Shown one piece after another: positions 15,731 to 23,049 of a stretch of 39,308 nt of DNA. Made by a program: the position numbers and the translations under genes. The notes beneath the pieces were generated by a model that searched no databases, had not been told where the DNA came from, and saw only the letters and a program-made list of their open reading frames with translations. The stretch's first letter is position 1. Each line of letters opens with the position of its first letter. Where the stretch lies: the sequence record ON528722, one strand, 5' to 3'. Source of the stretch: Shigella phage ESh9.

Positions 15731-16051
15731 TCAGATATTGATTCCACCGCCGGAACTGCGAGCTACGCTAAGTGCCTTCTTACCGCCAGCGCGTGCCTTC
15801 TTACGTGCGCTCTCGGTTTGCGCCTCATCCTCGCCCTCAGCCTTATCCTGTTCAGGTACATCTACAATCTGTGCTGGAGGCGGCGCAGCCACTACTGGTG
15901 CTGGAGCCTCTTGTTGGATAATCTCCTGCTTACCAGCACCCAGCGCCCCACCAACGGCTTTACCGACTTCCTTACCAGCCTTCTCGACCGGTTTGCCGAC
16001 TTCCTTAACTACTTTCTTAACAGCTTTCTTGATTTTCTTGAAGAATCCCAT
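15731..16051 (-). CDS. 7.3: Tail/ejection-associated protein gp7.3
   Basis: MGFFKKIKKAVKK...AQIVDVPE...DEAQTESARKKARAGGKKALSVARSSGGGINI matches the recalled T7 gp7.3. Confidence 0.8.
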   Translation of the reverse strand: MGFFKKIKKAVKKVVKEVGKPVEKAGKEVGKAVGGALGAGKQEIIQQEAPAPVVAAPPPAQIVDVPEQDKAEGEDEAQTESARKKARAGGKKALSVARSSGGGINI

Positions 16052-16077
16052 AATGTGTCCCCTATGTTATGCCACAG

Positions 16078-16329
16078 TTACCCAAACGCCTTGGAGCGAA
16101 TGGAGGATTTACTCTTGTTCTTGGCTGCGTTGTCGTCCAGCTTTACCTTTAGACTGCTCTTGCCGCTGCTCGGTGTGGTTGGCACCTCAGAGGAAGACAC
16201 GCTGGTGTCCTCGTCACCATCGCCTCCCCATACCACAGACTTCGGAGGTTCAGTCAAAGGTGCTGGTTCGGCAGCGCGAATCTGGTTAGTGTCCATCTTA
16301 GGGACTTTCACCTTCGGTTTCCAGCACAT
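16078..16329 (-). CDS. 6.7: Virion protein gp6.7
   Basis: MCWKPKVKVPKMDTNQIRAAEPAPLTEP... matches the recalled T7 gp6.7. Confidence 0.8.
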   Translation of the reverse strand: MCWKPKVKVPKMDTNQIRAAEPAPLTEPPKSVVWGGDGDEDTSVSSSEVPTTPSSGKSSLKVKLDDNAAKNKSKSSIRSKAFG

Positions 16330-16333
16330 ATAA

Positions 16334-16579
16334 TTACTCCTGTCTCAGTTGCTCTTTACGCACCTCAATCTCATCAAGTGTTCGAGAGGCAAGGTACAGA
16401 CCGTGCATCACACCCGCAATGAAAGACTCAGAGTAACCCGCAGCGCGGAGCGCACGGTACTCACCGGACTCCATCACATAAGCCTGATTGAAGCGCACCT
16501 GTAGATACTCTTTAGCTGCACGAGGCATACTAGGAATATCATCGGGATGAGTTAAAACATGATTAATTGGTTGTAACAT
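16334..16579 (-). CDS. 6.5: gp6.5-like protein
   Basis: 81-aa ORF with SD GAGGTGA; position as T7 gene 6.5. Confidence 0.65.
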   Translation of the reverse strand: MLQPINHVLTHPDDIPSMPRAAKEYLQVRFNQAYVMESGEYRALRAAGYSESFIAGVMHGLYLASRTLDEIEVRKEQLRQE

Positions 16580-16607
16580 AATTTCACCTCTTAAGGTTAA
16601 GTCTTAA

Positions 16608-16682
16608 AGTAATAATCATAAAGGCTCCCTCTTCCCTTTAGTGAGGGTTAATACAGAGAGCCTTGAGTTTATCACTTAATCT
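16608..16682 (-). promoter_or_regulatory. RNase III-type processing hairpin with embedded T3 promoter (R6.5/phi6.5 analogue)
   Basis: aataatcataaaggctccc...ccttgagtttatcactt inverted repeat enclosing ccctttagtgagggttaat (16634-16654). Confidence 0.6.
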
Positions 16683-16785
16683 CGGAGTCTCGCTTCACGT
16701 CTCGGACTATGAGAGCGAACATCCAGAGACCTCGCGCCAGCATACCTACCAGCACAGCGACGGTAATCAGCTTCGCGGCGTCCAT
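16672..16785 (-). CDS. 6.3: Small hydrophobic protein, gp6.3-like (37 aa)
   Basis: ATG at 16785, translation [37 protein letters not shown]; same size and place as T7 gene 6.3. Confidence 0.5.
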
Positions 16786-17678
16786 AAGTAAATCTCCTTG
16801 TCAATGTAATTGTATTCCTCGAAGCGAAGAATGCGAGCCATCTGGCCTTGCTTGATGATTTCCTGCTCGGTCATCCCAGCTTTGGCACCAATGGATTTAA
16901 TGCAGTCCCACAGCGTCTCAGTCGCATCAGGAGCACGCTTCACCCACTTGGTTACTGTCTGCCCCTTGTTCTTACCAGACTTCAACACGGACTCTACAGG
17001 CTCCACAATGAACGGGTCATTCAGGAAACCTTCTGCTGTATCGCCCCAGCCGGGAATCCCGGAGTAGCCATCAGTCATATCACCCTTGATGGTCTGGAAG
17101 AGATGCCACCAATCAGCGGTCTCTTTGGTCTGCGTCAAGATGTTACCAGTGGTACACCACAGGAAGTCAACGTCCGGGATAGTCTTGAAGTCCTTGTCAC
17201 AGGAGACCAACACAGCTTTCTTGAAGCCGAAGACCTCGTGACCAGACCCAATGATGCCCATAACGTCATCACCTTCAAGCATGTCCTCTTTGATGTGAAT
17301 GAACTCATCGCGCTCCCACAGCTTCGACAGGAAGTCACGGTAGCCTACAGGCTTACGGGTCGCCTTACGGTTCTCCTTATAGGTCTCATCAACCAGTACC
17401 TTACGCCAGTTCACATCGTCGGTAAACGCCAGAACAACCATAGCGTCACTCCAAGCCTTCTTACGGGTTCGGTACGATTCGATTGCAGAATCGAGAATGC
17501 TCCGTGCCTTGGCGTGGTCACACTCAAGAGTCCAAATGTCGTCTCCCCAATCCGTCTCAACTTCGGCAGCAGCCATTGACTGATATACCAACCAGTCACC
17601 ATCCATGACCAGCACTCCCTTCTCCATAGGCTTACCTTCACGCATCTCCGCGAAGTCTTTCAATGTGATTAGGCTCAT
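16767..17678 (-). CDS. 6: 5'-3' exonuclease gp6
   Basis: 303 aa (T7 gp6 is 300 aa); synteny. Confidence 0.9.
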
Positions 17679-20847: not shown

Positions 20848-20857
20848 AGGGCGCTCC

Positions 20858-21070
20858 TTACTCAAAGAATTTGCTCATGGATTGTGCTTTGGCTGCAATC
20901 GCTGCCGACTTGTGGATGCCACTAACAGCCGCATCGGATTTCTCACGGGACTGTTTCGCCAACTCAATGGCTCGCTGTGAATCAGCTTTGGCTTTCTTGT
21001 CCAGCTTCTTGGCTTCGATGAAGTACAGTTTAACTACCAGCTTACCTAAAGCGTTAATGAATTTAAACAT
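20858..21070 (-). CDS. 4.3: gp4.3
   Basis: 70 aa from ATG at 21070; MFKFINALGKLVVKLYFIEAKKL...SKFFE matches T7 gp4.3. Confidence 0.7.
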   Translation of the reverse strand: MFKFINALGKLVVKLYFIEAKKLDKKAKADSQRAIELAKQSREKSDAAVSGIHKSAAIAAKAQSMSKFFE

Positions 21071-21096
21071 GATGTGTCTCCTGTGGTTCAATGGTT

Positions 21097-21120
21097 GTTC
21101 CCGTTAGTGAGGGTTAATTA
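21097..21120 (-). promoter_or_regulatory. T3-type promoter (phi4.3)
   Basis: Reverse complement TAATTAACCCTCACTAACGGGAAC. Confidence 0.65.
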
Positions 21121-21453
21121 CTTCTTGGAGGCATAGAGCGCCTGTTCGCGCTCATTTAGTTCCTGCCATTCGTCAAAAGTCTGACTGTCCGTCTTGTTCA
21201 GTCCAGCCAGTATCTCCTTCTCCTTCTTCGCCAGTATAGCTAGATGGTTCAAGCCATCCTGTTTCTCTGTTGTACTCCATGTATCCAGCAATTCCAGTAT
21301 CACCAGTGAAACGACACTTAAGCAGGCGAACCAGCACCAAGTTAGGCATATCACCTTGCTGGTTACGCTCCAAGGCGATGATAGTATCAGAAAGCTGGCG
21401 CAGGGCACCAGAACCGCGTAGGTCAGTAATAGAAACAGCGCGTCCTTCTTCAT
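21118..21453 (-). CDS. 4.2: gp4.2-like protein encoded inside gene 4 in an alternate frame
   Basis: 111-aa ORF within the gene 4 3' region; T7 has a 112-aa gene 4.2 in the same arrangement. Confidence 0.45.
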
Positions 21454-22873
21454 GTGCTTTTCCCTTCTCCGGGTTCTTCAAGTGACAAATCACTACGAGC
21501 ACAACACCAGTTGACTTAGCGAACCCTTTTAGCTTGGTCATGAGGCGGTCAATCATCTTACGCTCATCCGATTCCTCAGAGGCAGACACGACGATTGAGA
21601 TGTGGTCGAGCACTATAACATCACACCCTAAGCCTGTTCGCATGTAGGCCAGCTTCGCTAACAGCCTGTCAGCTTCGGCCTCCGCAAAGGAGTCATAAAG
21701 GTGGAACGTATCGTCTCCAAATAGTTCATCATACCATTCATCGAAACGTCCGTCCTCTGCGATAGCCTTCTTGACTTCATCAGACTGACGCAGGCGAACC
21801 TTATTGTTCAAGCCCATCATGTCCTGAATGGTATCCTCAACGGATTCCTCCAGCATCGCTAGGCCGACACGTTTGCCCATCCGTTTACCCCAAGACAGCG
21901 CCTGTTGACGGACGAAGGTTGACTTACCCATGCCGGAACCGGAAGTGACCATGACGACTTCGCCTCCACGAGCACCCAATGTTCTATCGTTCAGACCTTG
22001 ACAGCCATCGAATAATAAACCTACAGCGTCCTCGGAGGTCATAGCTTCCTTAACGCGGTCTTTGAGTGACAACGCAGAGACAACACCATCAGGCACCCAA
22101 GGGTTTGCGTTCCAGACCTGCTCCAAGATTGCTTTGTCTTCACCCATGATGTGACACTCATTGGCGTCCTTGTATGGTAACACAGCAACACGAACCTTTC
22201 CAGCCGGGAGAACCTGTGCGGCCTCTTCGACTGCCTTACGGCCTGCGTCATCCATGTCGAACATCAAGATAATCTGCTCGAACTGGTCGAAGTATTCATA
22301 GTTAGCGGCGCATGTCTTCTTAGCAGCAGAGGCACCGTGACCCAATGATACGACCGGGTACTTACAGTCTTGGAGTTCCATCACAGTGAGCGCATCAATT
22401 TCGCCCTCAGTGACCACAATTTTCTTACCACCAGACCAGAGGTGCTTCAAGAACAACGCATCACTCTTGTGGCTTCCGGCGGTCTTAAAGTTCTTGTCCT
22501 TATCGCGCACCTTCTGTGACACGATGGAGCCGTTCTGGTCTCTGTAGTCGGCAACCTGATACATTCTGTTGTCCACTTTCGCCAGCCAGTAGCCAGCCTT
22601 TTGGCACGTCTCCTTCGAGATGCCACGGGCAGTCAGGTCAGAGTATCGACCGTTGCTGTCGCCGAAATTCCATACGTCATAGCTCATAGGCTTGCTGCCT
22701 CCTGTACGTCTTCTCGTTGATAACTGCTCAGCTTTCCGTTCATCCCCCGGCGTCCAATTCTCACAGGCGTAACAGTACGTGTGACCATCGGAGAACAATG
22801 AGTTAGCATCAGAAGACCCACAGTTCTCGCACGGGATATGGTAAAGGAATATACTGTCGTTTTCTTGTTCCAT
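21173..22873 (-). CDS. 4: Primase-helicase gp4
   Basis: 566 aa (as T7 gp4A); N-terminal Cys4 zinc motif CENCGSS...CYAC; Walker A GSGMGKST. Confidence 0.95.
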
Positions 22874-22922
22874 GTGGTTAATCCTTAATCAATAGTGCGA
22901 ACAAAGGGACAACGTTATGTCA

Positions 22923-22946
22923 TCCCTTTAGTGAGTGTTAATTACT
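22923..22946 (-). promoter_or_regulatory. T3-type promoter variant upstream of gene 4
   Basis: Reverse complement GTAATTAACACTCACTAAAGGGA. Confidence 0.55.
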
Positions 22947-23049
22947 TATCGGTGTGTTCCTCAGCCTTTATCGGGTCTTTGCACTGACACTGACGTGATG
23001 GTACGCGACTCTTCAACGGCTTATCACAGCGAATACAAATCATCCTCAT
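22942..23049 (-). CDS. Small Cys-rich peptide (35 aa), possible zinc ribbon
   Basis: ATG at 23049 after SD GAGGGTG; MRMICIRCDKPLKSRVPSRQCQCKDPIKAEEHTDK. Confidence 0.4.
   Translation of the reverse strand: MRMICIRCDKPLKSRVPSRQCQCKDPIKAEEHTDK

Follow-up and report, generated by a model that had tools for sequence, protein, structure and literature searches.

Homing-endonuclease-gene slots and T3-group traits in the middle region of a Teetrevirus genome, Shigella phage ESh9

In a recent preprint, T7 genes 2.8, 3.8 and 7.7 are treated, and deleted, as 'three homing endonucleases' that attenuate GAPS4, and T7 gp3.8 and a homing endonuclease gene (HEG) of a BASEL phage are reported to act against GAPS4 (bioRxiv 10.1101/2025.09.07.674715). 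Citrobacter phage SH1 has been described as lacking the 5.3 HEG and carrying another HEG that is absent from phiYeO3-12 (Hamdi et al. 2016, PMC4925675). As a general pattern, nuclease genes lie where exchanged genetic segments begin and end (Barth et al. 2023, PMC10055350). The region considered here is the stretch from gene 2.5 to gene 8, and in particular positions 15,731 to 23,049, in the genome of Shigella phage ESh9 (sequence record ON528722), whose full 39,308 nucleotides (nt) are called the window. A first-pass annotation had compared this region with T7 and had read its gene content as consistent with a shuffling of mobile and accessory cassettes between conserved core genes. Taken together, the evidence is very probably best explained by a Teetrevirus genome that combines standing gene-content differences between the T3 group and the T7 group with polymorphisms at two HEG slots, one between genes 2.5 and 3 and the other between genes 5 and 5.5.

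The window is a complete, circularly permuted Teetrevirus genome (T3/phiYeO3-12-like, Studiervirinae) that reads on the minus strand, where all of its long open reading frames (ORFs) lie. Its ends fall inside gene 17, the tail fibre gene, which is split over 1-732 and 38100-39308. By megablast, Serratia phage 2050H2 (Teetrevirus, NC_047844) matches 100% of positions 15000-24000 at 97.4% nt identity, with an identical gene order from 2.5 to 8, and in 91 phage records the match extends over at least 80% of the same span.

A complete T3-type gene map was obtained by running every annotated protein of T7, T3 and phiYeO3-12 against the window by tblastn, together with the reverse test. Nearly all genes in 15731-23049 show 94-100% amino acid (aa) identity to T3 or phiYeO3-12. 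The gp1 RNA polymerase is 99.2% identical to that of T3, gp0.3 is of the T3 S-adenosylmethionine (SAM) hydrolase type (98% identical to T3), and 13 promoters of the T3 consensus were found in the window against 0 expected by chance. Nucleotide identity and collinearity, T3-type promoters and polymerase, and the T3-group accessory gene set all place the genome in Teetrevirus. T7 is the wrong reference for it, and the window is to be read against T3 and phiYeO3-12. In a per-base identity profile the interval is 97-100% identical to phiYeO3-12 except for a 150-bp dip to about 85% near 21000-21150, which is common to the three Teetrevirus references, and two divergent patches, A and B, described below.

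Most of the middle-region differences from T7 are genus traits of the T3 group. As standing differences from T7, the group lacks genes 3.8, 4.1, 4.7, 7 and 7.7 and has 3.7, 4.15 and 6.1. T7 genes 3.8, 4.1, 4.7, 5.3 and 7 have no tblastn match in the window, and the sole match to 7.7 is the paralogous HNH ORF between 2.5 and 3. Spacers of 26 nt (6.7/7.3), 10 nt (7.3/8) and 19 nt (5/5.5) leave no room for genes 7, 7.7 and 5.3. Thus, 7.3 does follow 6.7 without a gene 7-sized ORF, and no HNH-like ORF lies between 5 and 5.5 or after 7.3, as the first-pass annotation had seen. The annotated genomes of T3 and phiYeO3-12 also run from 6.7 to 7.3 to 8, without 7, 7.7, 3.8 or 4.7. T7 gene 5.3, which the first-pass annotation had taken as HNH-like, does not encode an HNH protein: T7 gp5.3 is a PD-(D/E)XK nuclease (Pfam PDDEXK_5, E = 1.1e-10), while the gp5.3 proteins of T3 and phiYeO3-12 are HNH proteins.

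Two antisense ORFs over 7.3/6.7 (15708..16289 and 15818..16333, both plus strand) were considered as candidates for gene 7. Neither was accepted, because the genome is coded on the minus strand throughout, which places both ORFs on its non-coding strand, and because the search with T7 gene 7 gave no match. Stop-free plus-strand frames occur at 15708-16289, 11936-12970 and 24431-25573 (193, 344 and 380 codons), antisense to 7.3/6.7, 10 and 2.5. None of the three has a homologue among T7, T3 and phiYeO3-12 genes, and they are taken to be by-products of composition, not genes.

A 35-aa Cys-rich ORF upstream of gene 4 had been listed among the differences from T7. The ORF is real and has four Cys residues, but it is gene 3.7 of T3, which is likewise 35 aa long, lies between 3.5 and promoter phi3.8 and is 97% identical, with a single substitution (D for E at residue 34). 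A 35-codon gene 3.7 with phi3.8 directly after it is annotated in both T3 and phiYeO3-12. All four Cys are conserved, codon differences are synonymous in 5 cases versus 1-2 non-synonymous, and the protein has no Pfam match. The idea that it is a remnant of T7 gene 3.8 was rejected, since gp3.8 has no tblastn match in the window and change in gp3.7 is mostly synonymous. The RefSeq annotation of 2050H2 omits gene 3.7, of which an intact copy, 94% identical to that of the window, lies at 11648-11755.

T3, phiYeO3-12 and 2050H2 all lack 7 and 7.7 and have 3.7, so that these traits are uninformative about shuffling in this genome. Accordingly, the accessory complement is for the most part one already seen elsewhere: the 6.7/7.3/8 run and gene 3.7 are as in T3, the 2.5/3 junction is as in T7, and the whole interval is as in 2050H2. 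Only two strain-level differences from T3 and phiYeO3-12 are found, namely an HNH gene of the 2.8 family that is present and the HNH gene 5.3 that is absent.

The HNH gene between 2.5 and 3 encodes 156 aa. Residues 42-86 match Pfam HNH_3 (E = 1.9e-13, 50.2 bits against a cut-off of 24.8), with a weaker match to zf-His_Me_endon, and the HNH_3 catalytic motif is intact in a sequence that reads ...RHKCDNPCCVNPEHLEVGTQADN.... In a single-sequence AlphaFold model that is otherwise unreliable, aa 110-150 form a three-helix unit resembling a helix-turn-helix (HTH), with pLDDT (the predicted per-residue confidence) of 77-87. A PDB sequence search with the protein gave non-significant matches only (I-HmuI, E = 0.83; an HTH repressor, E = 0.43). 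T7 gp2.8 is a homologue (42.6% identity over 141 aa, E = 4e-29). It is also an HNH_3 protein, is annotated as 'endonuclease', and its gene sits in the same slot, has similar first codons and overlaps the start of gene 3. The two differ in length (139 aa in T7), have no detectable nt similarity and represent separate HNH lineages. The first-pass annotation was right that an HNH gene occupies this junction, which lies beyond position 23,049, but not that it stands there 'instead' of the T7 nucleases. Because T7 has a homologue in the same slot, the gene is not a replacement for 5.3 or 7.7.

Aligned with T3 and phiYeO3-12, the window has about 435 bp more, inserted precisely between the stop codon of 2.5 and the ATG of gene 3. 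The HNH gene has no nt match in T3, phiYeO3-12 or T7, and is 96.8-98.5% nt identical to annotated homing endonucleases of SH1, ESh7, 2050H2 and others. At a coverage of at least 80%, the query 23300-24800 has matches in 12 records, 10 of which have the HNH allele of the window at 96.8-97.8% identity. The same-allele records comprise eight phages (ESh8, KpnP_VR4605, Poynor, 2050H2, KLB4, SH1, ESh7 and F5M1C), and most of them annotate the gene as an HNH or homing endonuclease. A second group of relatives has a span of similar size with a different insert. In the majority of relatives, including phiYeO3-12, phiCFP-1 and phiYe-F10, the span is about 435 bp shorter and the slot is empty.

HNH genes and gene 3 alleles extracted from six relatives show that at least four HNH lineages use this slot, with 34-49% aa identity between lineages, and that all of them overlap the start of gene 3. 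One is shared by the window, 2050H2 and 5OI88, another by Leclercia 10164-302 and Patroon, and a third by LL2 and HMGUsm2, and the fourth is T7 2.8. The neighbouring gene 3 also comes in distinct alleles. One is found in empty-slot genomes (76% identical to that of the window), one accompanies the window-type and Leclercia-type HNH genes, and a third occurs in LL2 and HMGUsm2. The gp3 of the window is 76% identical to that of phiYeO3-12, 70% to T3 and 80% to T7, but 91-97% identical to those of the HNH-bearing 2050H2, Leclercia 10164-302, Patroon and 5OI88. Within patch A, gene 3 has about 71% nt identity to phiYeO3-12, T3 and T7, between flanks that are 97-100% identical to phiYeO3-12; 2050H2 is 97-100% identical throughout.

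The second slot is the junction of genes 5 and 5.5. T3 and phiYeO3-12 have gene 5.3 here, also a free-standing HEG beside an essential replication gene, whose product belongs to the same HNH_3 family as the HNH protein of the window (34% identity over 71 aa). In the window the slot is empty and the junction is clean, with no remnant of 5.3 by tblastn. The same empty junction is found in 73 phage records, some of them merely 83-86% identical, while 42 records have a 5.3 gene of the phiYeO3-12 type. All four combinations of states at the two slots exist. The idea of cassette shuffling therefore holds at 2.5/3, which has three states, and at 5/5.5, which has 5.3 or nothing; it does not hold for 7, 7.7 and 3.7, which are fixed differences between the T3 group and T7.

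The empty slot lies inside patch B. Here gene 5.5 encodes a protein with 91% aa identity to T7 gp5.5, as against 53% to T3 and 46% to phiYeO3-12, and the patch as a whole has 80-86% nt identity to T7 and 97-100% to 2050H2. Its edge is sharp. There are 0 differences from phiYeO3-12 in 18710-18561, and every 30 nt between about 18555 and the 5.5/5.7 junction contain 8-18. The patch begins about 12 nt upstream of the codons for motif C (VHDE) of the DNA polymerase.

This position can be compared with a homing site. In phiI and W31, both T7-like phages, HNH-bearing group I introns are reported at E. coli Pol I site 881 (PMC3428280). Site 881 would correspond to the VHDE motif C of gp5. The free-standing T3 5.3 enzyme reportedly cuts at motif C as well; it is said to be named F-TslI and to be related to the intron-encoded I-TslI. 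If the T3 5.3 enzyme does cut there, patch B would be the tract expected to be co-converted, from the cut site to the far side of the HEG.

A homing mechanism could account for both slots. The HNH HEG, whose translation would follow immediately on that of 2.5, runs into the start of gene 3 and is linked to a distinct gene 3 allele. The empty 5/5.5 slot goes with a 5.5 allele of the T7 type and with a gene 5 whose 3' end is divergent. In a mixed infection, the endonuclease would cut a HEG-less relative near the slot, and recombinational repair off the HEG-bearing genome would copy the HEG together with flanking DNA. Genomes that are otherwise nearly identical would then differ in short mosaic patches with sharp bounds. 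The homology, the slot occupancy, the patches and their boundaries are observed in the alignments; from them we infer that the HNH proteins are active nucleases, where they cut and in which direction transfer went at the HEG slots.

Several points weigh against this mechanism. The nuclease activity of the 156-aa protein, like that of T7 gp2.8, is putative and predicted from sequence. The single-sequence AlphaFold model of the protein is unreliable over the HNH domain (pLDDT is below 50 for aa 1-108, and its mean is 47.7). Finally, the linkage between HNH and gp3 alleles is strong but not one-to-one: in Leclercia 10164-302 and Patroon the HNH protein is 43% identical to that of the window and gp3 is 93-96% identical. 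Given this uncoupling, the same patches could also come from ordinary homologous recombination that carries the HEGs along as passengers.

Such recombination would take place between co-infecting T7-like phages through gp2.5, gp6 and gp3, with the HNH genes inactive or carried along. It would fit the mosaicism at sites that have no nuclease gene, such as gp15/gp16, 18.5/18.7 and the variable gene 1.7, as well as the partial uncoupling of HNH and gp3. Both patches of the interval are nonetheless centred on a HEG slot, and the start of patch B is no more than about 12 nt away from a published homing site of gene 5. Several diverged HNH lineages share one slot, as site-specific elements would, and the HNH_3 catalytic motif is intact. 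Recombination unaided by the nucleases is an unlikely source of the patches.

Alternately, the HNH gene may be kept mainly because it benefits the phage, for instance by blunting host defences that sense DNA breaks, with mobility secondary. In the preprint, T7 lacking 2.8, 3.8 and 7.7 loses to wild type only in the presence of GAPS4, and catalytically dead HEGs still attenuate GAPS4 (bioRxiv 10.1101/2025.09.07.674715). The 2.8 slot is also occupied in T7 and in many Teetrevirus lineages. On the other hand, the slot is empty in most close relatives, so that any benefit would be conditional, and the GAPS4 result comes from the joint 2.8/3.8/7.7 mutant, with no separate contribution of gp2.8 reported in the text consulted. 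Benefit as the main reason for keeping the gene is improbable.

Deletions or assembly artefacts peculiar to this sequence, for which nothing speaks beyond the absences themselves and the fact that the assembly is circularly permuted and broken within gene 17, are refuted as the cause of the missing 5.3, 7 and 7.7 by the distribution of the same arrangement over independent genomes: the 5/5.5 junction recurs in the 73 records, diverged ones included, 6.7, 7.3 and 8 are contiguous in T3, phiYeO3-12 and 2050H2, and the region as a whole is covered in the 91.

The two slots may also record ongoing interference competition among co-circulating T3-like phages. On this tentative and rather unlikely extension, HNH enzymes of the 2.8 family would attack relatives that have no HEG, either at the 2.5/3 junction or at the 5' end of gene 3, while motif C would be the cutting site of the HNH enzyme 5.3. 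In that case the window would combine a polymerase allele that is resistant or naive to 5.3 with an offensive element of the 2.8 type, and the HEGs might serve against host defences too.

Table 1. Features between genes 2.5 and 8 of the window (positions in ON528722).
Feature	Position	Strand	Remarks
Gene 2.5, single-stranded DNA-binding protein	24398..25096	-	99% aa to phiYeO3-12, 98% to T3; left flank of HNH slot
HNH ORF, gene 2.8 family, putative free-standing HEG, 156 aa	23924..24394	-	Pfam HNH_3
Divergent patch A: HNH gene and gene 3 allele	about 23450..24400	-	
Gene 3, endonuclease I	23502..23960	-	start overlaps HNH ORF by 37 nt
Gene 3.5, amidase/lysozyme	23054..23509	-	100% aa to phiYeO3-12 gp3.5
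Gene 3.7, 35 aa, CxxC...CxC	22942..23049	-	97% to T3, 94% to phiYeO3-12
Promoter phi3.8, T3-type	22921..22942	-	3 mismatches to T3 consensus; directly after gene 3.7
Gene 4, primase/helicase	21173..22873	-	99% aa to phiYeO3-12 gp4A
Gene 4.3	20858..21070	-	100% aa to phiYeO3-12
Gene 4.5	20563..20847	-	100% aa to phiYeO3-12; then 66-nt gap to gene 5, no gene 4.7
Gene 5, DNA polymerase, 704 aa, intact, intron-less	18382..20496	-	98% aa to phiYeO3-12
Motif C codons, VHDE (gp5 aa 652-655)	18532..18543	-	
Divergent patch B: last ~175 nt of gene 5, empty 5.3 site, gene 5.5	about 18066..18555	-	
Empty gene 5.3 site: 19-nt spacer with T7-type 5.5 ribosome-binding region	18363..18381	-	from alignment
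Gene 5.5, T7-type allele	18063..18362	-	Pfam Phage_T7_55, E = 2e-62
Gene 5.7	17854..18063	-	100% aa to phiYeO3-12
Gene 5.9	17675..17857	-	98% aa to phiYeO3-12
Gene 6, exonuclease	16767..17678	-	99.7% aa to phiYeO3-12
Gene 6.3	16672..16785	-	100% aa to T3 gp6.3
Gene 6.5	16334..16579	-	100% aa to T3
Gene 6.7	16078..16329	-	98% aa to T3
6.7/7.3 spacer, 26 nt, no gene 7	16052..16077	-	as in T3 and phiYeO3-12
Gene 7.3	15731..16051	-	98% aa to T3; Pfam VirionAssem_T7
7.3/8 spacer, 10 nt, no gene 7.7	15721..15730	-	as in T3 and phiYeO3-12
Gene 8, portal	14113..15720	-	99% aa to phiYeO3-12

Other parts of the genome have features of their own. The internal virion (ejectosome) protein gp16 (804-5333, minus strand) is 1509 aa long, as against 1318-1322 aa in T7, T3, phiYeO3-12 and 2050H2. 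In place of a linker of 8-11 residues it has an in-frame segment of 198 aa (aa 716-913; 2595-3188, minus strand), for a net gain of about 187 aa. This segment matches Pfam Acetyltransf_1 at 24.5 bits against a cut-off of 20.7, and 7 of 8 homologous inserts match GNAT. The segment has a conserved YRRKGIAT; the pattern of the acetyl-CoA-binding motif A is R/Q-x-x-G-x-G/A. In a Foldseek search of the PDB the top 50 matches are all acetyltransferases, though weak ones (E of at least 0.012, TM scores of 0.2-0.3) obtained with a low-confidence single-sequence model as query, and the N- and C-terminal elements of GNAT are not evident. The segment is thus a putative, GNAT-like acetyltransferase core.

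By tblastn, this segment is found over at least 80% of its length in 13 of 50,697 phage records, always inside gp16. The carriers are Berlinvirus or Kayfunavirus where a genus is assigned, and some are Klebsiella phages; no other Teetrevirus record of this collection has it. None of the carrier records annotates it as an acetyltransferase, no description of it was found in the literature searched, and a protein homologue search with the isolated insert returned nothing.

In the gene 1.05 slot (28089-28583, minus strand) there is an ORF of 164 aa, of which the C-terminal 73 aa alone match Pfam Phage_T3_1_05, at 36-39% identity. The N-terminal part of about 90 aa, hydrophobic and then charged and coiled-coil-like, is absent from T3, phiYeO3-12 and 2050H2, and the start codon is provisional. 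Two small early-region ORFs lie between 0.3 and 0.6 (32734-32928 and 32954-33238, minus strand). Compared with T7, T3, phiYeO3-12 and 2050H2, the one of 94 aa is common to 2050H2 only (98% identity), and the one of 64 aa, which has a GTG start and a hydrophobic N-terminus, has no counterpart.

Affinities also vary along the genome. Genes 15 and 16 (804-7599) are of the 2050H2 type, with their products 97% identical to it and 80-83% to phiYeO3-12. The spanin genes 18.5/18.7 (37065-37517) are of the phiYeO3-12 type at 99%, with 46-57% identity to 2050H2. In gene 17 identity to T7 and T3 is about 55% over the N-terminal part, and the C-terminal part is 81% identical to phiYeO3-12 gp17. The phiYeO3-12 genes 13.5 (endonuclease VII) and 1.45 (HNH) are absent from the window by tblastn.

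The findings at the two slots are known in substance, since the HEG swap has been published for SH1, T7 2.8, 3.8 and 7.7 have been treated as HEGs, and nucleases at exchange boundaries are a general pattern. They carry little weight as a discovery, because the oddities of the region are either genus traits or textbook HEG polymorphisms already noted for SH1. What is added is a clean case of a recombination patch whose start lies at a known homing site of the DNA polymerase gene, and the presence of at least four diverged HNH lineages in one slot across T7-like phages. The rare GNAT-like domain in gp16, an ejected internal virion protein, is of greater interest than the slots.

The closest described systems are 2050H2 and the other same-allele Teetrevirus phages (ESh8, KpnP_VR4605, Poynor, KLB4, SH1, ESh7 and F5M1C), which have the HNH gene between 2.5 and 3 and lack 5.3, 7 and 7.7. 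SH1 excepted, they also share the T7-type 5.5. 2050H2 differs from the window in having no gp16 insertion, a gene 1.05 of 90 aa, other alleles of 18.5/18.7 and an extra endonuclease VII gene. In SH1, the homing endonuclease encoded by ORF17 is the HNH allele of the window, in the same slot and with 96.8% nt identity. SH1 retains a 5.5 start of the phiYeO3-12 type, whereas the window has a T7-type 5.5. Further afield, the free-standing HEGs of T4-like phages and ICP1 (seg/mob, 'HEG islands'; PMC10055350) belong to other nuclease families and other phage lineages. They too are intergenic, lie beside essential genes and bound exchanged segments, a likeness of behaviour and not of membership.

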